A DNA stretch of 64,000 nucleotides from an uncultured Pseudomonadota bacterium (GCA_963843375.1 CAWJKT010000029.1:1-64000), one strand, 5' to 3'. Counted from the stretch's first letter, positions 14,135 through 60,598 are shown. Program-made: numbers and translations. Notes: generated by a model from the letters alone, not told the origin.

Positions 14135-14392
14135 ATGAAAAAAATTGAGGCCATTCTGCGGCCGGCTGGGTTCGGCGAAATGGAGAGAATATTGAAAGGG
14201 TTCGGCTATCCGGGGATCGTTCCCGCAACCGCCCAAGAGTATGAAAAATCCAAAAGCATTTCCTGGAGTTGGGGTCCATTGGATTTTAAGGTGGAATTCC
14301 TCCCGGATTTGAAGCTGGAAATATGGGGTCCGGACATGTTCGTGGATAAAATTTCCAAGGCGATGGCTCAACAACCCAGAACCGCGGCTTAA
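14135..14392 (+). CDS. Degenerate/truncated P-II-like protein (85 aa)
   Basis: MKKIEAILRP...GYPGI...KVEFLPDLKLEI; lacks the GxGxQ loop and GDGKIF; GAGGTG RBS. Confidence 0.75.
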   Translation: MKKIEAILRPAGFGEMERILKGFGYPGIVPATAQEYEKSKSISWSWGPLDFKVEFLPDLKLEIWGPDMFVDKISKAMAQQPRTAA

Positions 14393-14404
14393 AAACCATT
14401 GATA

Positions 14405-14472
14405 TTAATCTTTCCCATATAGCTTGGGATTCCCTCTTAATAGCATCCATATCCGGTTTCGTCATATCTTTT
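14405..14472 (+). promoter_or_regulatory. Putative KdpE-type promoter block, copy B (upstream of the micropeptide-kdpFABC operon)
   Basis: TTAATCTTTCCCATAT...TTAATAGCATCCATAT...ATATCTTTT; half-sites 11 bp apart. Confidence 0.6.
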
Positions 14473-14565
14473 CTTTGAAGAGAAAAAGATATGCCTGTGG
14501 ATGACATGGGTCATAAGTGGATTTTGAAGAAGGGGCGATCATTATATCGCCCGAAGGAGGATGCC

Positions 14566-14712
14566 ATGACAAGGATATTGTTTCTGTTGAGTCCGGTCAT
14601 TTTCGGCGGGCTGTGTCTTTTGATCGGGGAAACGTTCAGCTGGTTGAAACAAAAACGGGGAGAATCGGGTTTGACGAAAATGACGATTGTGTCTAACACG
14701 AGGAGGAAATAA
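14566..14712 (+). CDS. 48-aa single-TM micropeptide
   Basis: AAGGAGG RBS; MTRILFLLSPVIFGGLCLLIGETFSWLKQKR... Confidence 0.6.
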   Translation: MTRILFLLSPVIFGGLCLLIGETFSWLKQKRGESGLTKMTIVSNTRRK

Positions 14713-14714
14713 TC

Positions 14715-14813
14715 ATGTTGGAATTTTGGTGTGTAGCTTTGTTCCTGGCCTTGTCCGTTATAACGGTTGGTTTGATCGGCCTGTTGGACAAGATGATGGG
14801 AGGGGAACCATGA
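14715..14813 (+). CDS. 32-aa single-TM peptide coupled to kdpF
   Basis: GAGGAGG RBS; MLEFWCVALFLALSVITVGLIGLLDKMMGGEP*; its stop overlaps the kdpF start (ATGA). Confidence 0.75.
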   Translation: MLEFWCVALFLALSVITVGLIGLLDKMMGGEP

Positions 14814-14899
14814 GCGCGGTTTACTTGATCAGCGCGGTCGTCTCGGGGGGGCTTCTGGTTTACCTGGTAATTGCTTTGTTGAAGCCGGAGTGGTTTTAA
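14810..14899 (+). CDS. kdpF: K+-transporting ATPase subunit F
   Basis: MSAVYLISAVVSGGLLVYLVIALLKPEWF; YL..ALLKPExF signature; directly upstream of kdpA. Confidence 0.92.
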   Translation: MSAVYLISAVVSGGLLVYLVIALLKPEWF

Positions 14900-14959: not shown

Positions 14960-16753
14960 ATGACGACCAATCAATGGCTTCAGATCGCGGCGTATTTCGT
15001 GGTCCTTTTGGTTTTGTCGATACCCTTAGGCACTTACATGGCAAAGGTTTACGAAAATAAGCCATTTTTCCTGGAGAAGCTGTTCGGATGGCTTGAAAAA
15101 TTAATTTATAAAATTGCGGGCGTCCAACCAGACAAGGAAATGGATTGGAAAGGGTATGCCCTAGCGATGCTTCTTTTTAATATCGTGGGGGGATTAATCC
15201 TTTACGCGATCCAACGGTTCCAGGCCTCCATGCCCCTGAACCCAGCCGGTCAAAGCGCGGTGCCGCCGGACTTGGCCTTCAATACCGCCATCAGCTTCAT
15301 CACTAACACCAATTGGCAGTTTTATGGCGGTGAAACCACCATGAGCTATTTCACCCAGATGGCGGGATTGGCGGTTCATAATTTTCTTTGTGCCGCATCG
15401 GGTATGGCAACCTTGGTGGCCCTTATTCGGGGCATTGTCCGAAAAGAATCGAAATTTCTTGGGAATTTTTGGGCCGATATGACCCGGGGAACCCTTTATA
15501 TCCTCTTGCCCTTGAGCATTCTCTTTACCCTGGTCCTCATCCAGCAGGGGTCTCCTCAAACCTTCGCCAACACCGCCACCGCCACCTTGGTCCAGCCAAC
15601 TTCCTATGACCAGCCGGTAACGAATGCCCAGGGTGCGCCCGTGACGGGCAAGGACGGCAAGCCGGAAATGACGCATGTGGTTGTCACGGAACAACCTATT
15701 TCCCTGGGGCCAGTGGCTTCCCAGGAAGCCATCAAGATGCTCGGAACCAATGGGGGCGGTTATTTCAACGTGAACTCCGCCCATCCTTATGAAAACCCCA
15801 CTCCTCTCACCGACTTTTTGGAACTATTGGCGATTCTTTGGATTCCCGCTGCATTGTGCTTCACCTTTGGAGCTATGGCGAAAGATATGCGGCAGGGCTG
15901 GTGCATCCTGGCGGCCATGTTCCTGCTCTTGGCGCCCATGCTTTATCTTTGCGGCCAGCAGGAACAATCGGGTAACCCTCTTTTAAATAAGATCACCGCA
16001 GGCGCCCATGGCGAGGTTCTCTCCGATGGTAATATGGAGGGGAAGGAAGTGCGTTTTGGAATTGTCAACTCGGCTCTATGGGCCACAGTGACTACCGCTG
16101 CTTCCAACGGATCGGTCAATAGTATGCATGATTCTTTCACTCCTCTGGGCGGAATGGTTCCCATGTGGATGATCATGCTGGGAGAGGTTTCCTTCGGTGG
16201 TGTCGGCTCGGGACTTTACGGCATGTTGGCTTTCGTCATTTTGGCGGTTTTCGTGGCAGGACTAATGGTTGGACGCACGCCTGAGTATTTGGGGAAGAAG
16301 ATCCAAACCTACGAAATGAAGATGGCCTCTATTATGATCCTGATTCCGCCTCTTCTGGTTTTGATTTGTACGGCGGTGGCGGTGGCCTCGGGCGGGGCGG
16401 GCACCAACAATCCAGGGGCCCATGGTTTTTCAGAGCTTTTATACGCCTTTGATTCTATGTCCAACAATAACGGCAGCGCATTCGCGGGGCTTTCAACCAA
16501 CACTCTTTACAATCTCATGGGCGGAACGGCGATGTTTTTGGGTCGTTTCTGGCTGGCCATTCCAGTTTTGGCCATGGCGGGAAGTTTGGCAAAAAAGAAG
16601 GCCGTTCCCGAGAGCGCGGGAACCCTTCCGACCCACACGGTCCTTTTTACCATCATGCTGATTTCCACGATCATCATTGTCGGCGCTCTTACTTTCTTTC
16701 CAGCCTTGGCTTTGGGTCCTATTGTGGAGCACTTAAAAATGGTCCACATGTGA
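14960..16753 (+). CDS. kdpA: K+-transporting ATPase subunit A
   Basis: [55 protein letters not shown]. Confidence 0.98.
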
Positions 16754-16895
16754 CGGTTTGAAGATGAAAAAAACAAGAAAGACCAGGAGCGACAGCGTTA
16801 AAAGAAGAAAAAAAGAAATCAAGAAGCAGGGCAGAAAAAAAATAAAAAAAGATTCCAACCCGGGCCTTTGGGCCCCTCCAAAAGAGGTATTGAAA

Positions 16896-18971
16896 ATGAC
16901 ATCTGAAAAAATCAAAGAACGGAAATTGTTCGAAGGCGAGATCACCCGCAAGGCGATCCTTGAGGCCTTCAAAAAGCTGAACCCGGGGCACATGATCAAA
17001 AACCCCGTCATGTTCACGGTTTACGTGGGCAGCATTCTGACGACCGGTCTTTGGTTACAGGCTCTTACGGGTAAAGGGGAAGCGGGTCCGGGTTTCATCT
17101 TCGCGGTTTCGCTTTGGTTGTGGTTTACTGTGCTTTTCGCCAATTTTGCAGAGGCTATGGCCGAGGGCCGGGGCAAGGCTCAAGCCGATACCTTGCGCAA
17201 ATCCCGCCAGGAAGTGAAGGCGAAGAAACTATCCAAAGCCGACAGGGATTCCAAACAAACCGAGGTCTTATCCGGTGACCTTCGCAAAGACGATCTCGTA
17301 CTGGTGGAATCGGGCGATTTCATACCCGCCGACGGCGAAGCCCTGGTGGGTATCGCCATGGTGGATGAGAGCGCTATTACGGGGGAGTCGGCGCCCGTGG
17401 TTCGCGAATCGGGCGGAGACCGCAGCGCTGTTACCGGTGGAACAAGGGTTATTTCCGATTGGCTTGTCATCAGGGTTTCCTCCAACCCAGGTGAGTCCTT
17501 CCTGGACCGTATGATATCCATGGTGGAAGGCGCCAAACGGCAAAAGACTCCCAACGAGATCGCCCTCAATATATTACTAGCGGCTTTAACCATTGTTTTT
17601 CTCATCGTCTGCGCGACCCTGCTTCCTTTTTCTCTCTATAGCGTAATGGCATCGGGAGCCGGCAAGGCCGTGACGGTCACGGTGCTGGCCGCTTTATTTG
17701 TTTGTCTGGCCCCCACCACCATCGGCGGGCTCCTGTCAGCCATCGGCATCGCAGGAATGGACCGCATGATCCAGGCCAATGTCATTGCAATGTCGGGAAG
17801 GGCGGTGGAGGCGGCGGGAGACGTGGACATGCTCCTTTTGGACAAGACCGGAACCATCACCCTGGGCAACCGCCAAGCTACTGAATTCATCCCCGCCTCG
17901 GATGTAGATATCAAGGAATTAGCCGAAGCGGCTCAATTGTCCTCCCTCGCGGATGAGACCCCGGAGGGACGCAGTATTGTGGTGCTGGCCAAGGAAAAGT
18001 ACGGCCTGCGGGGCAGTTTAATCCACAACCTTAACGCGACTTTTGTGTCCTTTACGGCTCAAACCCGCATGAGCGGGGTGGACATGGGGAAGCGGTCCAT
18101 TCGAAAAGGGGCGGCTGAATCTATTGAGGAGTACGTGAAAGATCAGGGGGGCAAATATCCGGAGGATGTGCGGCGAGGGGTGGATTCCATTTCCCGCCTG
18201 GGTGGTACGCCTTTGGTGGTAGCCGAGGGAAAAAAGGTTCTCGGGGTCATTCATTTGAAGGATATCGTAAAGGGCGGCATCCAGGAGCGTTTCGCCGAAC
18301 TGCGTCGAATGGGCATCAAGACCGTCATGATAACGGGAGACAATCCCTTGACGGCTGCCGCCATCGCGGCGGAAGCCGGGGTGGACGACTTTTTGGCGCA
18401 AGCCACTCCTGAAACGAAACTCAAGCTTATCCGGGAATCCCAAGCGGGAGGGCGGCTAGTCGCCATGGCAGGGGACGGCACCAACGACGCCCCAGCTTTG
18501 GCTCAAGCGGACGTGGCAGTGGCCATGAATACCGGCACCCAGGCCGCCAAGGAAGCGGGAAACATGGTGGATTTGGATTCTAACCCCACCAAATTGATTG
18601 AGGTTGTCAAAATCGGGAAACAGCTTTTAATGACCCGGGGATCCTTGACGACCTTCTCCATCGCCAATGACGTGGCAAAATATTTCGCCATTATCCCGGC
18701 GGCATTTGCTGTCACTTACCCGGAACTCAATGCCTTGAATATCATGCGGTTGGCCACGCCCCAATCGGCCATCCTTTCGGCTGTTATTTTCAACGCACTC
18801 ATTATCGTGTTCTTGGTGCCTTTGGCCCTGAAAGGGGTCAAGTACCGGCCCGCTTCAGCTTCCAAGTTATTACAGGATAACTTTCTGATTTATGGAGTCG
18901 GAGGTCTCATCGTTCCATTCGTTGGCATCAAGCTGATCGATATGATCCTGGTGGGTTTGGGGCTTGTTTAA
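16896..18971 (+). CDS. kdpB: K+-transporting P-type ATPase subunit B (ORF is open back to 16758)
   Basis: [41 protein letters not shown] before ATG 16896. Confidence 0.98.
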
Positions 18972-19031
18972 TTCAGTTAAGTTTCAGCCGGCGGCTGAGG
19001 GCCTACGGCTAGATTTATTCGGAGGTTTCTC

Positions 19032-19619
19032 ATGATGAATGAAATCGCGGTTCAATTGCGGAATTCATTTGTTTTCGTCGTGCTTTTCACGTTTTTGGTG
19101 GGGCTTCTCTATCCAGGGGCGATGACTTTAGTAGGACATGTATTGTTTCCCCGTCAGGCCTCAGGGAGCCTGATTACGGTGAATGGAAAAACAATGGGCT
19201 CGGAATTGATCGGCCAGCCTTTTGACGACGTCAAATATTTTTGGAGCAGGCCCAGCGCGACCTCGCCCCAAGCCTATAATGCCGCTAATTCCAGCGGCTC
19301 CAACTTGGGGCCCACCAATCCCGATTTCATCACTTCAGTGAAAGGGAGGGTTGACACGCTGCGGAAGGCCGATCCGGACAAGGCGGAGGCTCCCGTTCCC
19401 ATGGACCTCGTGACGGCTTCCGGATCCGGCCTGGATCCGCATATCAGCCCGGCAGCGGCCGAATACCAGGTGTCCCGCGTGGCGAAGGCCCGGAACCTCG
19501 CCCCCGCCAAGGTTGAAGAATTAATCGCGCAGAACACCGATGGGCGTTGGCTTGGCTTTATTGGGGACCCGGGTGTGAATGTGTTGAAATTAAATCTTGC
19601 GCTGGATTCCATCAAATAA
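19032..19619 (+). CDS. kdpC: K+-transporting ATPase subunit C
   Basis: [48 protein letters not shown]. Confidence 0.98.
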
Positions 19620-20770: not shown

Positions 20771-21314
20771 CTGGATTTAGAGCTCCTTTGGCCGATGCCA
20801 TGGATTTAATGTTTTTGGTAATCGGCACAAGGCTCAAAATATAACCTAGTTCACGAGGTCTTGTCTATTCCGTAAAAGCTCTCGATGGTTTGTATTTCTT
20901 GGTTTCTTCCCGAAGAAAGTTTTCAAAATCATTTGCCAATTGGATAGAAAAAAACAAAAGGTGAACCGGTAGATAATTTAAAACGCTGAGCCAATGGGCG
21001 GATTTAAAAATGAATTAGAACAACTTCTTCTTAATAAAATAACAACAATTTAATGTGGCCATCCTGACAAATTAAAAATGCCGATAGGTTTTGTTGTTGG
21101 TCTGCGCGCGGGCCCTCCGGAGTTTTCAAAAAAAAATAAATTGAAAATTAATTTCAAAAACAACCTCGTTAGTTTGCCGTTAGTTTTTTTATTTTTATTG
21201 TTAGTAAGTTGTTATGAAATGTTGGAAAGAACAATTTAGGTCAGACGCACACAAATTTGTGTTTTCAAATTTAAATTTGTGATTGTTTTTGATGGATTAG
21301 CTCCTTGTTAGGAT

Positions 21315-21329
21315 TGGCATGAGTGTTGC
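21315..21329 (+). promoter_or_regulatory. Sigma54 (-24/-12) promoter of porin 1
   Basis: TGGCAT-GAGTG-TTGC. Confidence 0.85.
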
Positions 21330-21519
21330 TTTTGTGTTAGGTGCATATAGGTTCCGGGCGGAAGAAATTCAAGCCCCGGATGGAGGGAAGAGACGAGTTG
21401 AGAATCAAAGGCTGAAAAAGGAGGGAGGCGCTTTCCTGGCGGGTCGGGATCAACTGATCTAAAAGGGGGCGGGTTCCTCAAAATTTAACCCTGGAAATTG
21501 GGGAAAGGTGGGTGTTTTT

Positions 21520-23172
21520 ATGAGGTCGAGTAAGATTAAAAAAAGGATGGGCCAAGGAATTTCGCTGTTCTTTTTCTTGGCAGTAGCCCTATTCGGAGCC
21601 GGGGGGAGAGCCTGGGCGGATGATGCCGCTGCCGCAACCACGCCCGCAGCCACGCCTGCGGCGACGGCAGCACCCACTTCATTGATGGGCTTCATGAATT
21701 ATGCGGACTTCACTTGGGTGAATGGTAACACCCACGAGGTGGACTTCCCCTTGGCGGGGAAAGTTTGGTCACCGGAGTTCCTTTTCGACACAAACTACGC
21801 CTACGATTTCGCTCGTCCAAACGACCATGTGATTTCGGGATCCACTTGCACCAACATCAGCAATCAGGTGGTCTTGGAGCATTTGGGATTTGGAGGTGAC
21901 GCATGGCTTGACAACGTCCATTTGCGTATTATGACCGAATTCGGCATGTACGCCACGGAGGTGCCAAGGGACGACGAGACCCCGGCCAGGGGCTCTTGGG
22001 CTGTCGTGCCGGGAGTCCAGTATCTTACTGAGGCTTACGGCGGTTACCACTTTGATATCGCTGGCACGGATGGCATCAACATCGATTTCGGCCAGTTTCC
22101 GTCCTATGTCGGCCTTTACAGCTTCTATGACTCGGAAAACTGGACCTATCAGGCCTCTTACGTGTCATCCAACACTCCCTGGTTCTTTACGGGGGAACGC
22201 ACCCAGATATTCCCGAATGACAGATTTAAAATCGAGCTTTGGCTTATCAACGGCTGGCAGACTTACAACGAATTCGATGAGGGGTTGGGAAATGTGGGCC
22301 TCAATTTCGGCTGTGAACTCCGTGGCGCGCCGAATCCGAACCTGGTCTTGATTTCCAACGATTACATTGGTCCGGACAATCCCGATTCGCCGCAATGTAT
22401 CAAGTCCCACACGGACGACAGCATTGTGTGCAAATATTTCGATGACCCGAAATCAGGCGGTCTGGACAAGATGGCCTTCTCCTTGACTTGCGACGCGGGT
22501 ATGCAACAAGGGCCTTTGTATGTGGGAGGGTCACCCACCAGTCCTGCAGCCATATATGACAGCGAAAGCACGGTATATGGTAACGGTCCTTCGGACATAG
22601 GAATTGGGGAAAATGGCAACCCGACGGGTTATGGGCCCATTAATGCGCCGGCCTATACCGTCAACAGCGCGTACGTTACCGTTGGTCCCGGAAACAAACC
22701 CGGACAATACGCGGAATATTTCCTTGGAACCATGGCATACGACCGCATGTGGTTCGCCCACGATACCATCGCCATTACACTTGGCGGCGGTTGGATGACG
22801 AATCCCGGACGTTACTTGGCTCTGCTTCCGGATATCGACGGGGATACGGCCGCTCAATACGGTGGTGATCCTATCGCCACAGCCGCGTTCAACGAAGAAC
22901 CTGGGCTTCCTTGGACCTGCTGGGATTACGACATCAGTCTTCAAATTATGTCCAACGAATATATCACCTGGGATTTCGAATATACCCATCGCAACTCCAG
23001 CGTGCCTTACTTCGTCGGTCCGGGTGGCGTCACTTCCTCCGACGGGTGGACGGCGGGAGCGGCTACGGGATCAACCCAAGCCAACGGGGGTGGCGGTGCC
23101 TTTACTTCTTATCATCCGGATCTCGTGAACTATGAGGACATCCTTGTGGGTGCGGTGATGATCCACATCTAA
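21520..23172 (+). CDS. Outer-membrane beta-barrel/porin-like protein, paralog 1
   Basis: Signal peptide ending RAWA; Ala/Thr linker; amphipathic aromatic strands; LTEAYGGYHF, SYVGLYSFY, SSNTPWFFTG, WLINGWQ. Resembles BBP2/OmpL-like porins (by eye). Confidence 0.8.
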   Translation: MRSSKIKKRMGQGISLFFFLAVALFGAGGRAWADDAAAATTPAATPAATAAPTSLMGFMNYADFTWVNGNTHEVDFPLAGKVWSPEFLFDTNYAYDFARPNDHVISGSTCTNISNQVVLEHLGFGGDAWLDNVHLRIMTEFGMYATEVPRDDETPARGSWAVVPGVQYLTEAYGGYHFDIAGTDGINIDFGQFPSYVGLYSFYDSENWTYQASYVSSNTPWFFTGERTQIFPNDRFKIELWLINGWQTYNEFDEGLGNVGLNFGCELRGAPNPNLVLISNDYIGPDNPDSPQCIKSHTDDSIVCKYFDDPKSGGLDKMAFSLTCDAGMQQGPLYVGGSPTSPAAIYDSESTVYGNGPSDIGIGENGNPTGYGPINAPAYTVNSAYVTVGPGNKPGQYAEYFLGTMAYDRMWFAHDTIAITLGGGWMTNPGRYLALLPDIDGDTAAQYGGDPIATAAFNEEPGLPWTCWDYDISLQIMSNEYITWDFEYTHRNSSVPYFVGPGGVTSSDGWTAGAATGSTQANGGGGAFTSYHPDLVNYEDILVGAVMIHI

Positions 23173-23279
23173 AGTGAAGGTGGGAAAGAAGTTTTAAAAA
23201 GAGAGTGAACGTGAAGCGCCGGGCCGGATTTCAGGGATTCGGCCCGACGCCCTCTCCTCCAAGTTGATCGGCAGGAACG

Positions 23280-23313
23280 GGGACGGTTCTTCGGAACCGT
23301 CCCTTTCCTTTTT
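23280..23313 (+). terminator. Intrinsic terminator (UUCG loop)
   Basis: GGGACGGTTC-TTCG-GAACCGTCCC-TTTCCTTTTT. Confidence 0.9.
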
Positions 23314-23431
23314 GGGGGCGGTTATGAAGGGAACAAACCCTGAATCAAGGTCCAATAAGATTTTTTAAATTTCTTGTTTTTAAATTGCAGAACGATTTTT
23401 CAAGTACTCGGTTATCCAACAGGAATGAACG

Positions 23432-24127
23432 ATGGCCCACAAATATTTAATTCTTATGATTGAGGATGAAAAACCGATCAGGCGGTTCCTGAAGCCCTAT
23501 CTGGAAAGCCACGATTTTAAAGTGATTGAGGCGGCTAACGCCCGGGAAGGTCAGGCCCTGGCTTCTTCCCATAAACCGGATTTGATTCTTTTGGACTTAG
23601 GATTGCCCGATGAGGATGGACTGGTAGTCCTGCGCCGCCTTCGGGAATGGTCCCAGGTACCCGTTATCATCCTGACCGCAAGAGGCAAGGAAAAGGAAAA
23701 AGTGGAGGGACTGGACGCGGGGGCCGACGATTATCTCGCCAAGCCCTTTGACGTCGAGGAACTGATGGCCCGTATTCGCGTGGCCTTGAAGCACCTAAAC
23801 AGCATGAAACAACAAAATGACACCCCGGTTTTTGAGACCCCGGATTTCAAGGTGGATTTGGCGGCCCGTATCGTCAAGGTCGGGGGAAATGAAGTTCACC
23901 TGACCCCAAATGAGTTCAGTCTTTTGGCCTTCTTGGTCCGGCACGCGGGCAAAGTGGTCACCCAAAAGCTGATTATCAACGAGATCTGGGGGCCCACCAG
24001 CGACGACCAGGGGCGCTCCTTGAGGCTATATATCCACCTGTTGCGCCAAAAGATAGAAACCGATCCCGCTCTTCCAAAGTACATCCTGACCGAACCCGGA
24101 GTGGGTTACCGTTTGAAGTACCAGTAA
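23432..24127 (+). CDS. kdpE: KdpE-like response regulator, copy 2
   Basis: LLDLGLPD, GADDYLAKPF, HLTPNEF, TEPGVGYRL. Confidence 0.9.
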   Translation: MAHKYLILMIEDEKPIRRFLKPYLESHDFKVIEAANAREGQALASSHKPDLILLDLGLPDEDGLVVLRRLREWSQVPVIILTARGKEKEKVEGLDAGADDYLAKPFDVEELMARIRVALKHLNSMKQQNDTPVFETPDFKVDLAARIVKVGGNEVHLTPNEFSLLAFLVRHAGKVVTQKLIINEIWGPTSDDQGRSLRLYIHLLRQKIETDPALPKYILTEPGVGYRLKYQ

Positions 24128-24367
24128 ATCTTTATCCAATTCCCTTTCGGAAAAATAAAGAAATGATGAACAAGGCGCTGGCTTGGAGTTGAAGCGCAAA
24201 ATAAGTTTTTCCTTTGCCATTCGAAAAGGACGAAGGAGAGAGAGGAAGTGAAGTCTCGCGAAGAAAAAGAGGGAGATCTCCCCCGCCTTGGTGAGCGGAT
24301 TCAATAGATTAGTTGGAACGGGCTTGAAAAATACAATCATGTCAATTCGCGAAAGGCGGGTGTTGTT

Positions 24368-25999
24368 ATGAAGTCGAGAGAACTTAAAAAAAGGACAGGC
24401 CAAGGAATATCATTATTGCTTTTTTTGGCTATAGCCGTCATCGGATTATGGGGAAAAGTCTGGGCGGAGGAGGCTGTTGCCACAACGCCAGCGGCCACGC
24501 CGGTTGCCGCGGCGCCCGCCTCCCTGATGGGCTTCATGAATTATGCCGACTTCACTTGGGTGAACGGAAACACCCATGAGGTTGATTTTCCTTTGGCGGG
24601 GAAAGTTTTCACGCCCGAGTTCCTTTTCGACTCCAATTACTGTTACGATTTTTCCCGTGCGAATGACCATAATATATCCGGGTCCACCTGTACGAATCTG
24701 AGTGGCCAGGTCGTTGTCGAACATTTGGGTTTTGGGGGTGACGCCTACATCGATAACGCCCATTTGCGCATTATGACCGAGTTTGGAATGTATGCCACCG
24801 AGGTGCCCAGGGATGATGAGACCCCGGCCCGGGGTTCTTGGGCTGTGGTACCGGGGGTCCAGTATCTCACCGAAGCCTTTGGAGGTTACCACTTCGATGT
24901 TGCGGGGACGGATGGGATCAATGTCGACTTAGGCCAGTTTCCCTCTTATGTCGGTCTTTACAGCTTCTATGACTCGGAAAACTGGACCTACCAGGCTTCC
25001 TACGTTTCCTCCAATACACCCTGGTTTTTCACGGGTATGCGTGTTCAGTTGTTCCCCAGTGATTATTTCAAATTGGAACTTTGGGCCATCAACGGGTGGC
25101 AGACCTACGGCATTTTCGACGAAGGCTTGGGAGGCTCGGGACTCAATTACGGCTTTGAAGTCCGCGCTGCGCCAAACCCTTCGCTGGTCCTGATCTCGAA
25201 TGATTACGTCGGGCCGGATAATGCCGATTCTCCGAACTGCATCAAGTCCCATACGGATGACAGCATCATCTGCAAGTATTTCGACAATCCGAAATCAAAC
25301 GGTCTGGATAAGATGGCCTTCTCCTTGACTTGCGATGCGGGTATGCAACAAGGGCCTTTGTATGTGGGTCCGAGCGCGCCGTTATACGACAGTGAAAGTA
25401 CCGTATACGGCGGGGGTAACGGCACGGGTTTTGGACCAAGTTATGGGCCCATCAATGCGCCTTATGCCACTGTTGGTCCGAGTGGCTGGGTTACGGTCGG
25501 TCCCGGGAACAAACCCGGGCAGTACGCGGAGTATTTCCTGGGGGCCATGGCCTATAACCGTATGTGGTTCGCCCACGACACCATCGCCTTTACGTTTGGC
25601 GGAGGTTGGATGGATAATCCCGGACGTTATCTGGCGCTTCTTCCGGTGATCGATGGGGATACGGCCGGCAATTACGGCAGTGATCCTGTCGCCACGGCTG
25701 CTTTTAACGAATCGCCGGGCGTCCCCTGGCAAGCATGGGATTACGATTTAAGCTTACAGATTATGCCAAACGAATATCTCACATTCGGTTTGGAGTATAC
25801 GCATCGTTCCTCCAGCGTACCTTACTTCGTTGGGCCTGGGGGCATCACTTCCACCGATGGATGGGGACCGGGCGCGGGTACTTCAAGCATCAATGTCAGC
25901 ACGGCTCCCGGTACTCCGAATGGTACCTACACTTCCTATCATCCCGACCTGGTGACCTACGAAGATTTGATCGTGGGCGCGATTATGGTCCATATTTAA
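24368..25999 (+). CDS. Outer-membrane beta-barrel/porin-like protein, paralog 2
   Basis: Collinear and highly similar to paralogs 1 and 3; differs in loop segments. Confidence 0.8.
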   Translation: MKSRELKKRTGQGISLLLFLAIAVIGLWGKVWAEEAVATTPAATPVAAAPASLMGFMNYADFTWVNGNTHEVDFPLAGKVFTPEFLFDSNYCYDFSRANDHNISGSTCTNLSGQVVVEHLGFGGDAYIDNAHLRIMTEFGMYATEVPRDDETPARGSWAVVPGVQYLTEAFGGYHFDVAGTDGINVDLGQFPSYVGLYSFYDSENWTYQASYVSSNTPWFFTGMRVQLFPSDYFKLELWAINGWQTYGIFDEGLGGSGLNYGFEVRAAPNPSLVLISNDYVGPDNADSPNCIKSHTDDSIICKYFDNPKSNGLDKMAFSLTCDAGMQQGPLYVGPSAPLYDSESTVYGGGNGTGFGPSYGPINAPYATVGPSGWVTVGPGNKPGQYAEYFLGAMAYNRMWFAHDTIAFTFGGGWMDNPGRYLALLPVIDGDTAGNYGSDPVATAAFNESPGVPWQAWDYDLSLQIMPNEYLTFGLEYTHRSSSVPYFVGPGGITSTDGWGPGAGTSSINVSTAPGTPNGTYTSYHPDLVTYEDLIVGAIMVHI

Positions 26000-26096
26000 A
26001 CCTGAGGTTTTGGATGAATTTTGGAAGAAAGTTAAATAAAACTTCGGTCTGAGTTTTAACGATAGGTCACAAGTCTTTTCTCTTAGTTGAGAAAGC

Positions 26097-26127
26097 AGGG
26101 ATGGTTCTTCGGAGCCGTCCCTTTTTT
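26097..26127 (+). terminator. Intrinsic terminator
   Basis: AGGGATGGTTC-TTCG-GAGCCGTCCCT followed by a T run. Confidence 0.88.
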
Positions 26128-26641
26128 ATTGGGCGCTAAAAAGTCCGATTTGCGAACTTTTCCCCTGCGTTTTTGAAAATAACCGAAACGGGTTTCGGGG
26201 CCCTAATTCATTGATGAATTCCCAACCATATGAATTATGAATATAGAAGGTTCTTTTCTTCAAACAGCCACATTGAACGGGGGATTCAATGTTCGCGAAA
26301 CAATGGGCGAGTTTTATAAATCCATCAAAGCAATTCCGTCTTAACAAAACCATAACCTTTAAACGGCAATCTTTATGGATTACTAATGCGCCGTTGTTTT
26401 ATGATCCGCTCTCGTAAACACAAAAAGAGATTTTTTTCGGCGAATTAAAAAGTGGAAATTAATTTTTAAAATAATTTTTTAACCGTTTGGATAATTGGTT
26501 ACATCGGCCATTCATTTTAAATTTTATAAAGAATTAGTTAGGAAATGTTAAAAAGAACAATTAAGGGCAGACACGAACAAATTTGTGTTTTCACTTTAGA
26601 GTTTGGTTTTCGTTTTTAAGGCAATAGCGCGTTGTTAGGAT

Positions 26642-26656
26642 TGGCATGAGTGTTGC
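26642..26656 (+). promoter_or_regulatory. Sigma54 promoter of porin 3
   Basis: TGGCAT-GAGTG-TTGC, identical to 21315. Confidence 0.85.
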
Positions 26657-26838
26657 TTTGAGGTTAAGCGCTTATAGGTTCCGGGTTGAAGAAATTCAAG
26701 TTCCGGATGGAGGGAAGAGAAGAGCTGGGAATCAAAGCTGAAAAAGGAGGGGCGCTTTCCCGGAGGGCCAGAACTGGCCTGAAAGGGGGCGAGTTCCTCA
26801 AATTTAACCCTGGAAATTGGGGAAAGGTTGGTGTTTTT

Positions 26839-29471: not shown

Positions 29472-29750
29472 GTATTTTCAATTCCGCCCATCCGCCCTTC
29501 CTGTTCTAACTCCAAGGAAGTCTTGGAATTCCCAGCAAAAATTATCAATAATAATAATTTGAACCTTGTTCACCACGAAAAAAATAAGTGTTCGAATTAA
29601 GCCACCCATACCATTTCGCTTTTAGGTCTTGAGGGTATTTGGTGGTGAAAAATATTTTTTTAGATTCTCTGGATCTTGTCCTGGTTTCCATTGCGGCAAA
29701 TGCGGTTATAGGGCTCGAAATCGATTGGTCATCAAACTTTGGTGGTGGGA

Positions 29751-35337: not shown

Positions 35338-35374
35338 TTCAAATAATTTTAGACTTTTAAAAAGGAGCAAAACA

Positions 35375-39481: not shown

Positions 39482-39507
39482 GTTTATTTTTTAACGAGGT
39501 GACGACG

Positions 39508-46245: not shown

Positions 46246-46287
46246 AACGGCCTCCAATAGAATTTGGGCCGTCCTCTACTCGACGCG

Positions 46288-46422
46288 CCCTTCGATGCCT
46301 GCGAGGTTAGCTGTCGGGCTCGGCGCGAAAGGTTCGCCGTTCTTTCCCATCAAGTCGGGTTAGAAATTAGCCCCAAATACCTGGGTCCCCCGTTCGCTCT
46401 AAACAAGCGATTCGGCTATAAG
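46288..46422 (-). ncRNA. c-di-AMP riboswitch (ydaO/yuaA class)
   Basis: Minus strand GCCGAATC...ACGGGGGACCCA...TTTGGGGCTAAT...ACGGCGAACCTT...GCCGAGCCCGACAGCTAACCTCGCAGGC matches the class consensus. Confidence 0.93.
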
Positions 46423-46624
46423 CCGAGAATCTTTATACTTTTTTAATATGAAATCAATGGAAATAGGAAAGAGGGTCGAAATTAATAAAATTTTAACATC
46501 TAAAAAAATTACATATTATAAATATTTCCAATATTTCAGCCCCGCTTTTGAAGCCATCAGAGGACCAGGTGAAGATTTGTCACCAATTTGGATATAAAAA
46601 TTGTGTTTTTTCAGCTGAAAGGGG

Positions 46625-48463
46625 TCAACCGACAATAATCAGGGCAGCGGATTCGGGAAGACGTTCCGCCAGGTTCTTAAGCATTCGTCCTCTAACCATT
46701 CGCCAAAAGAAAGTCCGCTTGGAGGAACCCACAAACACATGGGTAACCCTGAGGTTTGTCGCGGCTTCGGCAAGGGAATGGCCGGCATCTTCCGCCATCC
46801 TCCAAATAGGAATGCAACCGACCTTGTGTTTTTGAAGGACAGCGCAGGAACCCGTCAAAACATTAATGGCTTCGGGGGATGGCTTGATTTCCTGGGGAAG
46901 AAAAAGGCCCGGCATTTCATCGATGTAAATCACATAAACATTAACCCGTTTTAAGCCCTTGGCGTAAGTGGCCGCGTCTTGAAGGAGCTTTTCATTGACG
47001 AACCTTAACGCCACGATAATGGGCGAGGATTCCATGGCGGAAGCCTCGATCGCTTCTTCCAGGGTGAGTATATTGGAAGCTTCCGGAAGGTTCGCCACCC
47101 TGGATTCGGCTTCGGCAAATTGAAGTACCGCTTTTTGGGACGCCTTAACGCGATGCCAGACGCCGACCCCCACCAAGATTGTGGCCAAGGTGCCTCCAAA
47201 CATAAGAGCTTCAGGCTTGTGGAACATGTTGATAACCCACGCGGCCAAAAGGGCCAGGGTGGTGAAGGCCCCCGTCCAAAATTTTATTCCCCGGACCCCA
47301 TCCCTCCAGCGAAGCTTATCAATGGCCAGGGAGGAGAGGGATAGGGTGCCCAATAAGCCGAAATTGTAAAGGTCGCCAAGCGCGTCCACGTTGGCCCGAG
47401 TGATAAGAATGATGGCCATAGGGACCAACCCCGAGATGAGAATTGAAAAATAGGGCGTTCCAAGAGTCGGATGGCGTTTTCTTAAAAATGATGGGAGGAA
47501 GCCCAGATCCGAAAGTCGGACGTTTACGTGGTAGTTCCCGACGATAGCGGTATTGCAAGCCATGAAAAGCAAAGACGAAGCGGCTAATACCACCGCGACC
47601 CCCATCAAAGGTCCGCCGATTTGAAAACCTAGGGCGGAAAGTAGGGAATCGGATTGAGTTTGTTTCACCGAATCCGGAAGCAAGTAAAGCACCACGGAAG
47701 TCATGGGAGAGGATACCAAGGCGATGGTCACAATGACCCACATCATGGCTTTGCCGGCGGTGGCTTTGATAGGGAAGCGCATAGAACCGGATATCTGGGC
47801 GACCGATTCAAGGCCCGAATAAGCCAGCCAAGTAGTGGCATAACCAATCATGACCGCTCCAAAAGTAATGGGAATGCCGGGATGAGTAATGCTATTCCAC
47901 CAACCTGACCAGGAATAATGGGGATTGAAGGCGATTTTTAAAAAGGCCCAGCCCAAGAGAAGAAAAGTGACGATGATTTCCACGGTGGCGAAACTCGAGG
48001 TTACGGACGCCGATTCCTTGATGCCGATCATATTGATTAGCACCAGACAGAGGAACAAAACCATGGAAGCGGCAATAACCAAATCCTTGGTTTCGGGCAT
48101 GAGACTGGAAAGGTAATAAAGACCTGAGACGCCCGATATGGCCGAAGTAAGAAAATAATCCACCGTAATGAAAGCCCCCCCGACCAGGGGGAGAAATTCC
48201 AGAGCGGAAAAGGCTTCCCGCACGATCGATACCACTCCGCCGCCATCGGGGCAACGCTCACAGATTTCCACGTATTTAAGAGCGATGGAAACGAATACGC
48301 CGGTAGTGATGAACTGTGCCAGGGTGGCCAGGTTGCCGATGGAGCCAAATAGGATGCCGGGAGTGTAAAAAACGGATGTTCCGATGTCCGCATAAACGAT
48401 GGCGAAAACCAGTACCCAGCCTAGCTGATGAACTTTCACGGATGTTGAATTGGAATCGGACAC
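46625..48463 (-). CDS. APC (KimA-like) transporter with a C-terminal USP domain; start GTG 48463
   Basis: YADIGTSVFYTPG, PDGGG, ITVDYFLT, YSGLES, LYNFG; USP tail ...LAEAATNLRVTHVFVGSSKR...; GGAGG just before the GTG. Confidence 0.88.
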   Translation of the reverse strand: MSDSNSTSVKVHQLGWVLVFAIVYADIGTSVFYTPGILFGSIGNLATLAQFITTGVFVSIALKYVEICERCPDGGGVVSIVREAFSALEFLPLVGGAFITVDYFLTSAISGVSGLYYLSSLMPETKDLVIAASMVLFLCLVLINMIGIKESASVTSSFATVEIIVTFLLLGWAFLKIAFNPHYSWSGWWNSITHPGIPITFGAVMIGYATTWLAYSGLESVAQISGSMRFPIKATAGKAMMWVIVTIALVSSPMTSVVLYLLPDSVKQTQSDSLLSALGFQIGGPLMGVAVVLAASSLLFMACNTAIVGNYHVNVRLSDLGFLPSFLRKRHPTLGTPYFSILISGLVPMAIILITRANVDALGDLYNFGLLGTLSLSSLAIDKLRWRDGVRGIKFWTGAFTTLALLAAWVINMFHKPEALMFGGTLATILVGVGVWHRVKASQKAVLQFAEAESRVANLPEASNILTLEEAIEASAMESSPIIVALRFVNEKLLQDAATYAKGLKRVNVYVIYIDEMPGLFLPQEIKPSPEAINVLTGSCAVLQKHKVGCIPIWRMAEDAGHSLAEAATNLRVTHVFVGSSKRTFFWRMVRGRMLKNLAERLPESAALIIVG

Positions 48464-48470
48464 GCAAACG

Positions 48471-48640
48471 CCTCCGAAGCCTGCGGGGTTAGCTGTCGGG
48501 CTCGGCGGGAATGCTCGCCGGTTCAATCCTTTTATTAAGAGGATGAAACTTCGCCCCGAAAAAACTGGGTCCCCCGTTTGGCCTTCCGTTTGTTCCATGG
48601 AACAGGAACATTGCGTCAAGGCCAATTCGGCTATTAAGGT
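48471..48640 (-). ncRNA. c-di-AMP riboswitch (ydaO/yuaA class) with an extended P2 insert
   Basis: GCCGAATTGGCC...GGCCAAACGGGGGACCCAG...CGGGGCGAA...CCGGCGAGCATT...GCCGAGCCCGACAGCTAACCCCGCAGGC. Confidence 0.93.
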
Positions 48641-48860
48641 GAATCTTTATACTTTTTTAATATTTAATTTCAAGGGGATTATATTATCTGGAATCCTTCC
48701 TTGAGGTGAAAAAAGCCTTTTTTGTAATGGAAAACGACTCTTTACGATGGCCATTTTCCCATAAAAAAGAAAGCCGAAATGAACCTAATTGAGAAGCAAT
48801 AACAAACCGCATTCGAGTTAAAGTGGGGACAAGGTTTGGTTATGGTTGGTGAATTCCCAA

Positions 48861-57440: not shown

Positions 57441-57508
57441 TCGGATCATAAAAAGTTCCCCGGCGATCTTTTTATAGTATGGTTAACATCTTCAAAGGAT
57501 TAAAAATT

Positions 57509-57865
57509 ATGACTGAAAAAAACAAATCTTTTCTCGAACAAAGGCATCAATCGCGAGTCCCCGTGAAGATTCCGGTTCAATTCGAATTAGTCGAAGATCC
57601 GAAGGAATTGGATGAGCTCAAAAGTCGGACGGGTTTGGCCAAGGATTTGAGTCTGGATGGAATGTTCGTCAAGACGGACAAATCAGTTAAGCCGGGAGAT
57701 GTTTTTCGGTTGGATATTTCTTTGCCAGAGAAATCAAAACAACTATTCGCCTTCGCGGAAGTGGTATGGGCCAATGAAACCGGCGCCGGCCTTCGCCTGA
57801 TGTTAATGGCCGTTGAGGATAAGGAGGAATTGAAAGGCTATTTGGTCGGGGCCGTCTCCAGTTAA
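57509..57865 (+). CDS. Stand-alone PilZ-domain protein
   Basis: RxxxR (RHQSR) and DxSxxG (DLSLDG) c-di-GMP motifs; AEVVW. Confidence 0.9.
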   Translation: MTEKNKSFLEQRHQSRVPVKIPVQFELVEDPKELDELKSRTGLAKDLSLDGMFVKTDKSVKPGDVFRLDISLPEKSKQLFAFAEVVWANETGAGLRLMLMAVEDKEELKGYLVGAVSS

Positions 57866-57884
57866 CCTGTTGGGGATTTATTAT

Positions 57885-58367
57885 TCAATTCGGTAGGGCG
57901 TTTCCCAGGTCTTTTTCCAGATCTTCCGGTTTTGTGGTGGAAGCGTAACGTTTGATCGGCTCGCCTTTCGAATCGACCAGAAATTTTGTGAAATTCCATT
58001 TGATGGCTTCGCTTCCCAAAATTCCCGGTCTTTCATTGGTCAGGTATTTGTAAAGTGGATGGGCATTGACGCCATTAACCTCGATCTTGGAGAAGAGCGG
58101 AAAGGTAACCCCGAAATTCAGATCGCAGAAATTTTTGATTTCCGCTTCAGTGCCAGGCTCTTGGGAACCAAACTGGTTGCAAGGAAATCCCAGGGTGATA
58201 AATCCTCTATCCTTGTATTTTTTGTAAAGTTTTTCCAATCCCTCGTATTGAGGCGTAAAACCGCATTGGCTGGCCACGTTCACGATCAGTAGAACTTTCC
58301 CTTGGTATTCGGAGAAGGAAATTTCCTTTCCTTCGATGTTGGTAGCTTTAAATGAATAAATGGACAT
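57885..58367 (-). CDS. Glutathione peroxidase family protein (Cys type)
   Basis: GKVLLIVNVASQCGFT, LGFPCNQFG, IKWNFTKFLV. Confidence 0.95.
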   Translation of the reverse strand: MSIYSFKATNIEGKEISFSEYQGKVLLIVNVASQCGFTPQYEGLEKLYKKYKDRGFITLGFPCNQFGSQEPGTEAEIKNFCDLNFGVTFPLFSKIEVNGVNAHPLYKYLTNERPGILGSEAIKWNFTKFLVDSKGEPIKRYASTTKPEDLEKDLGNALPN

Positions 58368-58563
58368 GGAGCCTCCTTGGGGCATCTTCCGTTCCAACGT
58401 ATCTTAATTAATGAACATTTAAGCAGAAATATATTTCAATAGTGTATTTAGATACAATGTTGTAGTGACTCTCTGATTAGCAAAATTTGTAGAATTCCTC
58501 CGAAACCTAACTTTTCCCTAACGCTTTCATGTAAAAAATTCATAATTTTTTGCTGTGGTGGAG

Positions 58564-58578
58564 TGGCATGAGAGTTGC
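58564..58578 (+). promoter_or_regulatory. Sigma54 promoter of the APC-PII fusion gene
   Basis: TGGCAT-GAGAG-TTGC; preceded by CTAAC-N6-CTAAC at 58507-58522. Confidence 0.82.
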
Positions 58579-58627
58579 TTTTCTTCTTCCGACATTAGTT
58601 AAGTTTGACTATTTTTAGGAGGAAAAT

Positions 58628-60598
58628 ATGGCTAAGTCCGAAGCACCTCAAGCCCCAACCGAAATTGCCCGTGTACTCGATTGGAAAGGGGCATCCATCA
58701 ACGCTATGGCGCTCATCGCGCCGGGGGCCTTTTTATGGATCACCTATCAACTTCAAGTGGCAGCTACTGATCCCACTGGGGCCTCTTGCGCCAATGACAT
58801 GTGGGCCGGGATTCTCGTGGCCCTGGGATTAGCCTTATTGACGGCCCTCTCCTACGCCGAGTTGGCCAAGATTTATCCGGAAGCGGGTTTCGCCGGTTGC
58901 GTTTATTTCGCCGAAAAGGCCTTTATTGATGACCAGAAACTTAAAAGGCCGGGTCCAGAATCTATGGCTCGTATTGCCAAGCTGATCACCGGCTGGGCTG
59001 CCCATTTGTTTTACTGGGTTTATCCAGGAGTCATGGTGGCCTTCATGGGCACCCTGGCTTCGTACATTTATGGCGCAGTTACTGGCGGGACCATGACGAT
59101 CATGTGGGAATTGGTAATTGCCTGGGTTTTCGCATTTGGGGTGGGGTATATCGCCTACAAGGGCGTGGCAGGGTCTACGAAAGCCAATATGTGGGGCAAT
59201 ATCATTCAATGGGTCACCCTGGTTATCTTTAGCGTCTTAGCTATCGCCTATCGGTGGGTTAATCCGGATCACGCTACCAATTGGGCCTTCAGTGGGGGAT
59301 TCGATATTGTAAAGTTCCATTCGATCAAGGGGGTCCTGGTTCAATCCACCATCGCAATCCTGATTCTCGTCGGATTCGAAAGCTGTACTTCCTTATCGGC
59401 TGAAACCAAGGAACCAGAAAAGAATATACCGAAAGCCATTATTGTGGCCTTGATCGTCCAATGCGTATTCGCTTATATGTTCGAGTATTGGGCAGCCAAC
59501 TACATGGTGAGTGAGAAACTGACGGGGACCGTTCCAGTACCGGCTGTGGCCGCCGTTGCGGCCGTACCGGCAAGCGTGAGTGCCGCTGGAGTTACCACCG
59601 CCGCCGTCGCCGCGGTTGCCGCCGCGCCCGCGACCACCAAGATCGTCACGGGCTTTGATGCCATGGCCGCTTCCAGCGCTCCCATCGGGGACATGGTGGT
59701 TCGTCTGGGGGACAGCTTTTTTGGCCATCTGGGTTTCGCTTTAATGATCATTATGGCGATCACGGTGGCTATCGCTGTCGTGGGAACCACCCTGGCCTGC
59801 TATAACACGGCTGTCCGCGTGACTGCCGGGATGGCCGAGGACCGGGAACTACCCGCCTTCCTGGGATTCATCCACTTGAAGAATAAATCGCCCCACACGG
59901 CGATCTGGCTTTTGGTTGCGGTTTCCTGCGTGATTGCCACCATTGGTTGCCAATCGGTGGACGGATTGACCGGCATCACCCTGGCTTCCAACTTCGGGAC
60001 CTTCGTTCTTTACGGCTCGGTCTGTATCTGGACCTTCATCGCCTACAAGAGACGCAAGGATTTCAACGCCTTCAAACACGCTTTAATCCCCTTGGGAGGG
60101 CTTATCCTGAACGTGCTGATGTGCTGGGGCGTCATCTACCTCTACACTATCGGAAACGCGGACTCGCAGCTTGAGGCGAAGATCTTCTTCTATATCGCCG
60201 GCGGCTGGTTCCTGGTTTGGTTCCTCTACTTGTTCTTCACGTCCACGTTGAAATCGCATGGGATGAAGATGATCTCGGTGATCATCCGGCCGGATTCATT
60301 GGAAAACCTGGCGGATGCCTTGAATAAGGAAGAACTAGTCCAAGGAATGACGGTATCCGAGGTGAAGGGCTTCGGCCGTACGAAAGGATCGAAGACCGAC
60401 GACTCGCCCGCCAAAGTCAAGTTCCTGGAAAAGGTCCGGGTGGATGTGGTGGTGAACACATGGGATGTGCCCCATGTTATCGACGTCATGAAGGAGATCT
60501 TATACACCGGTAACAAGGGCGATGGAAAGATCTTCGTCCTTGAAACGACCGAGGCCGTCCGTGTCCGCACTGGCGAATCGGGAATCGCCGCAGTTTAA
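58628..60598 (+). CDS. APC-family permease fused to a C-terminal P-II domain (60263-60595)
   Basis: MALIAPGAF, LSYAELAKIYPEAG, LVGFES, AETKEPEKNIPKA, MAEDRELP; then in frame MKMISVIIRP...VKGFGR...TGNKGDGKIFV...AVRVRTGE. AGGAGG RBS. Confidence 0.92.
   Translation: MAKSEAPQAPTEIARVLDWKGASINAMALIAPGAFLWITYQLQVAATDPTGASCANDMWAGILVALGLALLTALSYAELAKIYPEAGFAGCVYFAEKAFIDDQKLKRPGPESMARIAKLITGWAAHLFYWVYPGVMVAFMGTLASYIYGAVTGGTMTIMWELVIAWVFAFGVGYIAYKGVAGSTKANMWGNIIQWVTLVIFSVLAIAYRWVNPDHATNWAFSGGFDIVKFHSIKGVLVQSTIAILILVGFESCTSLSAETKEPEKNIPKAIIVALIVQCVFAYMFEYWAANYMVSEKLTGTVPVPAVAAVAAVPASVSAAGVTTAAVAAVAAAPATTKIVTGFDAMAASSAPIGDMVVRLGDSFFGHLGFALMIIMAITVAIAVVGTTLACYNTAVRVTAGMAEDRELPAFLGFIHLKNKSPHTAIWLLVAVSCVIATIGCQSVDGLTGITLASNFGTFVLYGSVCIWTFIAYKRRKDFNAFKHALIPLGGLILNVLMCWGVIYLYTIGNADSQLEAKIFFYIAGGWFLVWFLYLFFTSTLKSHGMKMISVIIRPDSLENLADALNKEELVQGMTVSEVKGFGRTKGSKTDDSPAKVKFLEKVRVDVVVNTWDVPHVIDVMKEILYTGNKGDGKIFVLETTEAVRVRTGESGIAAV

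Follow-up and report, generated by a model that had tools for sequence, protein, structure and literature searches.

P-II proteins serve as the standard sensors of nitrogen and energy status, and the transporters known among their targets are ammonium, nitrate, urea, and bicarbonate carriers. In Proteobacteria the nitrogen phosphotransferase system (PTS-Ntr) controls KdpD, the sensor for the K+ pump KdpFABC. One study reports that Kdp also transports NH4+, causing futile cycling (PMC8552747), another describes a motif, SXS-X20-FTAXY, in KdpD proteins that bind cyclic di-AMP (c-di-AMP) (PMC4686210), and a third describes P-II genes beside czcABC or czcCBA, the PII-NG group (Sant'Anna 2009, as cited in PMC7726332).

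Here we analyze a 64,000-nucleotide stretch of DNA (CAWJKT010000029.1:1-64000, hereafter the window), the first 64 kb of the 77.7-kb contig C29 of an uncultured soil bacterium, with respect to the P-II-type domains encoded at 14135, 35843, 36418, 36831, and 60263. The genome assembly is about 80% complete (4.05 Mb), and genome-wide absences are limited accordingly. As the initial annotation had proposed, the five domains are genuinely of P-II type, and they lie among kdpF, kdpA, kdpB, and kdpC, two kdpD and three kdpE genes, three BBP2 porins, a TolC-membrane fusion protein (MFP)-CzcA operon, and two c-di-AMP riboswitches ahead of KimA-related genes (Table 1). We consider it about an even bet that the window belongs to a lineage-specific island that scavenges K+ and NH4+ or organic nitrogen, in which the P-II domains are three different things: a shortened P-II in the kdp leader, a trio of P-II genes behind kdpDE, and a P-II fused to an APC permease. 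That KdpE-type regulators switch on P-II genes within such an island is an overall reading whose chances we judge to be evenly balanced, its mechanism being what we infer below.

The shortened P-II gene and the kdp operator

The domain at 14135 (mini-P-II) matches PF00543 weakly, at 21.8–22.9 bits against a cut-off of 25 bits, and its P-II homology is clear from profile comparison (prob 99.2). It lacks G37/R38/Q39, K58, the B-loop, and the C-loop (E. coli GlnB numbering), carrying E37, K38, S39, and D58 instead and ending ahead of the B-loop; because these ligand sites are lost, established P-II structure implies that it would be unable to bind nucleotide or 2-oxoglutarate (2-OG) in the P-II manner. 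It had been annotated as degenerate, and shortened it is, but it does not behave as a pseudogene: its relatives keep a length of 85–87 residues at 75, 66, and 60% identity, and all of the sequences (eight, in four clusters at 90% and one at 50%) end PRTAA or PRNAA. At the related locus L227, mini-P-II is found at the same position, flanked by a divergent kdpD on one side and the kdp leader on the other, and the two operator copies are likewise present. Comparison of the two genes over 85 codons gives pN 0.22 and pS 0.72, a ratio of nonsynonymous to synonymous rates (dN/dS) of 0.11 (Fisher P 1e-11), alongside 0.13 for kdpD and 0.08 for kdpA in the same pair. Short-read contigs spanning the gene have no listed differences. 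Conserved length and ending, purifying selection, and the short-read contigs rule out both a pseudogene and a long-read artefact.

Genome-wide, the kdp operator pattern has exactly two occurrences, at 13978 ahead of 14135 and at 14437 ahead of kdpF; family loci also carry it upstream of kdp genes. The copy ahead of 14135 duplicates the kdp operator almost exactly and is related to, but distinct from, the CTAAC box described below. As judged from these sequences, 14135 is a shortened, ligand-blind P-II derivative, kept under selection behind a duplicated kdp operator at both readable loci.

In a tree of P-II proteins (127 rows), in which many forks are unsupported because the alignment spans 112 columns only, mini-P-II lies on a long branch within a 96%-supported group made up of P-II genes 3′ of a second type of Amt gene and the kdpC-adjacent P-IIs of two family relatives (G001, G072). 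An AlphaFold2 (AF2) model built from nine rows has a pLDDT of 80, and its top five Foldseek rows are P-II (E≥0.065, TM 0.36–0.43). In fold searches the model had no clear counterpart (best VIA Z 6.1, root-mean-square deviation 4.0, 61 aligned), which shows neither a new nor a changed fold, and Atlas searches of 14135 and 35375 returned leads below 0.9 only. For the region 12000-20000 no RNA holder is listed, from which we conclude nothing.

We propose that K+ shortage would activate KdpD1/KdpE1 and thereby induce kdpFABC and mini-P-II together. Mini-P-II might then act as a non-sensing P-II subunit or a decoy, titrating the parental type-A P-II (see below) or occupying that P-II's site on the Kdp system, and may thereby readjust how ammonium is handled during operation of the NH4+-permeable Kdp pump. 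Because Kdp passes NH4+ and can sustain a futile cycle, a ligand-blind subunit or decoy derived from the Amt-linked type A could alter how ammonium uptake or the pump is controlled. The full-length type-A P-II found behind kdpC in relatives could perform a sensing version of the same task.

Eroded P-II genes are also found beside the APC-P-II fusion in relatives (L325:8469-8858 in G067, L337:14511-14825 in G070, and L042:5964). That of G067 has a W..LDF..EFLP stretch in common with mini-P-II and is likewise without a B-loop.

Full-length P-II domains, their linkage to kdp, and promoters

PF00543 is matched above its cut-off at 35843, 36418, 36831, and the fused 60263 (77–99 bits), the last spanning residues 546–650 of the APC permease encoded at 58628-60598. 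All four domains retain G37, K58, the B-loop GDGK, and R101. Q39 is retained except in the fusion, which has T (among 115 fused rows, residue 39 is Q in 59% and T in 39%), R103 except in 35843 (S), and Y51, the site of uridylylation by GlnD, is present in 35843 only; GlnD (PF08335) was not found in this incomplete genome. The best Protein Data Bank (PDB) matches of 35843 are GlnB/GlnK, and none of the 41 at E≤10 is labelled DarA, PstA, or SbtB. PF06153 (CdAMP_rec) had no match at E≤0.5 in any of the five P-II domains and was absent genome-wide in a scan that gave matches in three control genomes.

The closest relatives of the full domains adjoin amtB, the second Amt type, porins, or glnA. Type A (35843) belongs to a 98%-supported clade whose members lie 3′ of the second Amt type, porins, or kdpC; type B (36418), with a W-P T-loop, to a group located 3′ of porins; and type C (36831) to a 99%-supported subclade of five genes linked to resistance-nodulation-division (RND) pumps, inside a 97%-supported amtB-GlnK clade. 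Since its members belong to three older P-II clades, the trio is not a tandem triplication. These features suggest that the four full domains are ordinary GlnB/GlnK-type nitrogen sensors from Amt- and porin-linked clades.

The genome holds nine P-II matches and a single amtB, at C29:66545-67951, with a P-II gene (glnK) immediately 3′ and the pair ending at 68335. The amtB-glnK pair thus sits about 2.5 kb beyond the window on the same contig, and the missing amtB is a window-edge effect. Similarly, glnA lies on contig C3 behind a sigma54-type promoter, directly 5′ of a second, frameshifted copy of the APC-P-II gene. The initial annotation was right about the absence of amtB and glnA from the window; both are present in the genome. 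NifH-like proteins gave no match better than 4.8e-10 in the genome as assembled.

Further P-II groups were seen in this genome and its relatives. A gene at C15:79547-79885, between a TPR protein and CheY in a chemotaxis cluster, and 15 relatives (e.g. L121, L124, L129) form a distinct clade (100% support, 16 rows) with the T-loop base altered to GYGYQ and K58 replaced by R. Pairs of P-II genes that we take to be NifI1/NifI2-like occur in several family relatives (L137, L152, L160, L165, L166), some near NifA-like activators, and not in this genome. Eight loci (L023, L131, L145, L032, L326, L331, L334, L335) carry an operon of the second-type Amt (about 560 residues), two P-IIs, and a PF16980 (CitMHS_2) transporter, which is not present in this assembly.

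Linkage of P-II to kdp recurs in the family of this genome. P-II loci were taken systematically from 18 family relatives, with selected loci from the others, and these genomes share kinship and are not independent; the kdpC survey covers the P-II matches listed, with up to 51 weaker ones outside them, on contigs several of which are short. Among the 99 phylum genomes, 41 carry kdpC, and 25 of these belong to the family. A full-length P-II lies directly 3′ of kdpC in three relatives (G001, G011, G072) and past a porin in a fourth (G002), giving at least 4/25 family genomes with one at ≤2.5 kb. With mini-P-II included, at least 5/25 have a P-II within 6 kb and at least 10/25 within 20 kb, where a crude random model would give each about 0.014 and 0.048, respectively. 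The four full-length kdpC-adjacent P-IIs require three changes on the tree, consistent with at least three separate recruitments of type-A P-IIs to this position. Complex prediction with three copies of the G001 kdpC-adjacent P-II and the cytoplasmic part of KdpB scored 0.00 and carries no weight for or against. Both kdpD1 and kdpE1 owe their frameshifts to one-base assembly errors, the extra base being missing from the short-read contigs of 4/4 runs, and these are not broken genes.

Open reading frames of 103–122 residues 3′ of kdpC in relatives, considered as a possible hidden divergent P-II, proved to be one recurring YnfA/UPF0060-like membrane protein and otherwise unrelated frames. The YnfA/UPF0060-like protein (103–115 residues) is often 3′ of kdpC in the family (L181, L185, L189, L197) and also near APC loci. 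Short KdpD-like kinases (DUF4118, with or without GAF, and HisKA) that lack the N-terminal KdpD domain are encoded, together with KdpE-like partners, in divergent orientation next to amt and APC-P-II genes (L022:15287, L027:9563, L032:2578, L336, L337, L338, and others) and are candidate ammonium sensors. Of 20 short kinase frames with DUF4118, some of them truncated at contig ends, 10 are ≤6 kb from P-II or amt and one is ≤6 kb from kdpC.

The 11-bp repeats reported in the initial annotation are real. CTAAC-N6-CTAAY occurs six times in the window against 0.12 expected, and 0/100 shuffles reach six; the repeat at 14135, which had been counted with them, is the kdp operator duplicate, related to the CTAAC element without being identical to it. 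A strict scan finds seven sites in 4.05 Mb, three of them in the window and one before the C3 fusion, and in a matrix scan 12/74 hits fall in the window, where 1.2 would be expected; the five best are the trio promoter, both fusion promoters, and two window sites outside the training set. CTAAC boxes precede 35236, 37447, and 58628; the pair before the fusion is kept in only 2/12 family relatives. Direct repeats of 11 bp are typical of OmpR-family sites, and given the three KdpE genes in this region, a KdpE paralogue is predicted as the probable binder of these boxes. Such a paralogue would turn on the trio module through the CTAAC boxes, and the trio P-IIs, possibly as heterotrimers, could report energy and 2-OG status to the module's own kinase or pump. 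Strong CTAAC boxes, among the strongest in the genome, are also found at minus-strand genes 43741-44100 (an 84-residue membrane peptide) and 20123-21215 (a 215-residue secreted protein).

Both the APC and the P-II domain are present in 119/120 best homologues of the fusion (query included), and 11/30 relatives have a full-length copy. An AA_permease domain and the LeuT/APC fold are recognizable; in an AF2 model (pLDDT 81.8), residues 17–545 adopt the APC fold (Foldseek E ~3e-11, TM 0.72–0.77 by target), scores against NCBIfam subfamilies are all far below cut-off, and PDB profile hits reach only E ~4e-4. Among 80 genome loci, 28 are fused (from other genomes) and 46 unfused, six cut by contig ends being omitted. 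Fused loci have a free P-II next to them in 22 cases, amt, glutamine synthetase (GS), or glutamate synthase (GOGAT) in 18, kdpA/C in three, and a PP2C phosphatase or kinase in none, whereas unfused loci have PP2C in all 46, a Ser/Thr kinase in 43, and GS in 29; the two states are two clades, so the contrast counts as one and not as 74. A sigma54-type promoter lies 5′ of 11/12 family fused genes and of both copies here. From these sequences and their context, the fusion is a nitrogen-regulon permease, with a P-II tail in one state of the family and a phosphatase/kinase pair in the alternative one. The fused P-II may trimerize with free P-II and gate uptake in response to ATP, ADP, and 2-OG, as GlnK does on AmtB. 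Candidate division FCPU426 is among the closest named relatives of the fusion; literature searches on K+ and this group gave community surveys only.

Unfused APC relatives in Chloroflexota, Ignavibacteria, Bacteroidota, and others (L076, L077, L082-L090) form an operon APC-PP2C-Ser/Thr kinase-glutamine synthetase. On contig C3, past about 182000, G+C climbs from about 0.47 to 0.60–0.70 and gene character differs, a possible mis-assembly or contamination. In the window, a second RND pump, of CusA type with a heavy-metal-binding-domain MFP, lies at 49192-53252, divergent from the second riboswitch gene.

Table 1. Features of the window, with positions counted from its first nucleotide
Feature	Position	Strand	Remarks
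kdpE1	10347-11030	-	after kdpD1; assembly error similar to that in kdpD1 near 10403
kdpD1, cognate sensor of kdpFABC	11198..13883	-	split by one-base assembly error near 12491-12495
kdp operator copy 1	13956..14013	+	CCATAT..TTAACAGCATTCATAT..CCGTAT; putative OmpR/KdpE-type repeats; upstream of mini-P-II
mini-P-II, 85 residues	14135..14392	+	P-II beta1 to alpha2 only; ribosome-binding site; purifying selection
kdp operator copy 2	14414..14473	+	upstream of leader peptides and kdpFABC
Small hydrophobic peptides, 48 and 32 residues	14566-14813	+	conserved, dN/dS 0.14 and 0.09; no Pfam match
kdpF	14810-14899	+	after the two leader peptides
kdpABC	14960..19619	+	Pfam
CTAAC boxes and sigma54-type promoter (21315) before porin 21508	21168..21330		boxes on minus strand, 21168-21183 and 21296-21311
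Three BBP2 porins with kdpE2 (23432-24127)	21508..28485	+	Pfam; sigma54-type promoter at 26642
kdpE3 - kdpD2 (904 residues, intact) - FGE-sulfatase-domain protein	28776..33726	+	conserved upstream part of trio module
CTAAC 11-bp repeat array, trio operon promoter	35079..35152	+	best genome-wide matrix hit
33-residue hydrophobic peptide and secreted 118-residue protein	35236..35731	+	conserved CPV motif; no Pfam match
P-II type A	35843..36223	+	Q39, Y51, K58, B-loop, R101; R103 replaced by S
P-II type B	36418..36783	+	W-P T-loop, without Y51; Q39, K58, R101, R103 kept
P-II type C	36831..37166	+	RND-linked subclade within amtB-GlnK clade
CTAAC-type box, helix-turn-helix (HTH)-DUF1232, TolC, MFP, CzcA-like RND pump	37378..43646	+	Pfam/NCBIfam
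c-di-AMP riboswitch and KimA homologue	44266..46427	-	aligns to 6s3k, E 9e-59
c-di-AMP riboswitch and distant KimA-like APC protein	46625..48642	-	E 4e-10 to 6s3k
CTAAC pair and sigma54-type promoter (TGGCA-N-TTGC at 58564)	58507..58579	+	before fusion
APC-fold permease with C-terminal P-II (546-656)	58628..60598	+	short T-loop, Q39T; K58, B-loop, RxR kept

Competing explanations for the P-II genes

In its most specific form, the reading of a K+/NH4+ scavenging island would have P-II wired into the Kdp regulon: KdpE-type regulators would induce the kdpC-adjacent P-IIs and mini-P-II, the latter reprogramming P-II trimers or docking on Kdp, short KdpD paralogues would sense ammonium, and a joint K+/NH4+ circuit would replace the PTS-Ntr link. 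We put this forward tentatively, at chances well short of even. Several observations weigh against a P-II-Kdp connection under KdpE-type control. The KdpE-type regulator at the CTAAC boxes is a predicted one, the matrix was trained on orthologous promoters of relatives and is partly circular, and in this genome sigma54-type sites are also found upstream of secreted proteins without a nitrogen link. The dN/dS of mini-P-II comes from one pair with dS near saturation, the gene occurs in 1/99 phylum genomes (this one) and forms a single 50% cluster, and its genomic context is known at two loci (this genome and L227), with one true relative among the 80 metagenome loci listed. The kdp link is the minority state (5/25 family genomes within 6 kb, among the matches listed); outside the family, 1/16 phylum genomes (G023, of the fused type) has a P-II that near kdpC, and 79 metagenome P-II loci have amt in 36, the APC family in 20, GS in 11, and kdpA/C in only one, L245, where a GlnB-like gene lies directly 5′ of kdpA. 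Because kin are not independent, counts over relatives also overstate.

The trio admits another explanation, which we regard as possible though doubtful and which may hold alongside the reading of a K+/NH4+ island: the trio would serve the CzcA-like efflux pump, in a PII-NG-like role of independent origin, and kdpD2E would regulate a metal or cation efflux module. The order porin-kdpE-kdpD2-FGE-secreted protein-P-II A,B,C-(HTH-DUF1232)-TolC-MFP-CzcA is conserved in five relatives (G005, G010, G011, G067, G068), in a sixth (G071) the trio is by itself on a short contig, and the module is found in at least 7/31 family genomes, this one included. kdpE-kdpD2-FGE lies 5′ of the trio in 6/6 and the RND pump 3′ in 6/6 of the loci with sequence there; tied to KdpDE upstream and pump downstream alike, the trio cannot be assigned a partner by gene context itself. 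In favor of the pump, the initial annotation's own alternative, are the RND-linked subclade of type C, a paralogue on contig C8 in which a type-C P-II alone abuts czcA with no kdp or amt gene near, the CPV motif of the secreted leader protein, which is YHS-like by an Atlas lead only (score 0.84), and the published precedent of P-II beside czcABC (PMC7726332). The pump itself scores 687 bits with TIGR00914 (cut-off 701) and has DFGIIVE in TM4. Types A and B, by contrast, otherwise occur with porins, the second Amt type, and PF16980 transporters, and the pump explains neither 14135 nor the fusion. The link to the pump thus stands for the third P-II, but membership of PII-NG does not: 36831 is nested among amtB-linked GlnKs and keeps Q39/K58/K90, which are missing in the three czc-linked plasmid P-IIs chosen as stand-ins for PII-NG, and these form a separate 95%-supported group in the 112-column tree.

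It is unlikely, in our estimate, that the genes reflect ordinary nitrogen control beside kdp in a shuffled transporter island, with the kdp-adjacent P-IIs as passengers and mini-P-II without a K+-specific role. Every full-length P-II here has Amt- or porin-linked sisters, no P-II lies within 6 kb in 20/25 family kdpC genes among the matches listed, gene order in the island is fluid among relatives, and G067 and G070 have further eroded P-IIs next to the fusion. Passengers, however, would not account for a mini-P-II with its own intact kdp operator at two loci near synonymous saturation and under purifying selection, for type-A P-IIs placed behind kdpC at least three separate times, or for at least 5/25 genomes within 6 kb against the crude random expectation given above. 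The initial annotation had proposed phylogeny and a neighborhood survey as a check; their answer is divided, the full P-IIs having Amt/porin-linked sisters and kdp linkage recurring in some family genomes.

Very improbable is the initial proposal that all five P-IIs form a dedicated, nitrogen-independent K+ layer like DarA/PstA or SbtB, possibly c-di-AMP-binding: the genome encodes a diadenylate cyclase and has both of its c-di-AMP riboswitches (46281-46427 and 48464-48642) in this window, a repeat is common to the trio, the RND operon, and the fusion, and the trio is always behind kdpD2E, but DarA/SbtB identity is ruled out by the family, residue, and tree tests, with canonical ligand motifs kept, and amtB-glnK adjoins the window and the fusion is glnA/amt-linked. 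The KdpD motif points both ways: KdpD2 has SAS-X20-WTAVY, close to the motif in PMC4686210, and KdpD1 SSN-X20-WIALY, but each also matches or comes near the E. coli-type RXXXR-X8-WXAVY, and SXS is missing from four other KdpD2 orthologues. What survives of co-option for K+ is the conserved kdp linkage of some genes (mini-P-II at two loci; G001, G011, and G072; the trio behind kdpDE in 6/6), not a single K+ layer. The KimA homologue at 44266 keeps acidic and Tyr positions that are presumably its K+ ligands, and c-di-AMP may act on the two riboswitches, perhaps also on KimA/KdpD, rather than on the P-IIs.

Comparison with known systems

No description of an APC-P-II fusion, of P-II in kdp operons, or of a shortened P-II of this kind was found in the open-licence PMC/bioRxiv literature, and the available part of PMC10433425 contains nothing on P-II fusions or Kdp. 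A Kdp regulon that includes a P-II gene, particularly a conserved non-sensing fragment, would represent a new way of tuning P-II signaling, and a P-II-Kdp link would give a handle on how NH4+ futile cycling through the K+ pump is avoided. The fused APC-P-II family would be a second candidate P-II target, its unfused relatives carrying the phosphatase/kinase pair instead.

Canonical GlnB/GlnK and the GlnK-AmtB system share with this locus the fold, the B-loop GDGKIF, K58, R101, and Q39 (T in the fusion), the amtB-glnK pair on the same contig, and P-II genes adjoining transporters. In contrast, this genome has nine P-II matches, no GlnD in the assembled 80%, Y51 in 35843 only, a P-II fused to an APC permease, a trio behind kdpDE, and a shortened P-II in the kdp leader. 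PII-NG is similar in that a P-II gene adjoins a TolC-MFP-CzcA-type pump (36831 and the C8 copy), but differs in that the genes here are nested in the amtB-GlnK clade and keep the canonical T-loop base, K58, and K90. With DarA/PstA and SbtB the locus shares the P-II superfamily, a c-di-AMP-producing organism, and nearby K+ transporters; it differs in lacking PF06153 matches, in its GlnB/GlnK-type motifs, and in having no sbtA-type neighbor among the annotated window genes. Residues 17–545 of the fusion have the fold of the APC transporters GkApcT (5oqt), LAT1, AdiC, and BasC, from which they differ by an identity of 13–16%, by invariant motifs of their own (NAMALIAPG, HLFYWVYPG), and, across the family, by the fused P-II or the PP2C and Ser/Thr kinase partners. 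KdpFABC/KdpDE with accessory peptides and PTS-Ntr is matched by the complete kdp set, the leader peptides, and a logic linking K+ uptake with nitrogen status, whereas here the kdp regulon itself encodes the candidate link, a P-II or a fragment of one, and kdpD/kdpE paralogues also flank amt and APC-P-II genes. The component families are all known, and their arrangement hints at a P-II-Kdp link narrower than one c-di-AMP/K+ layer.

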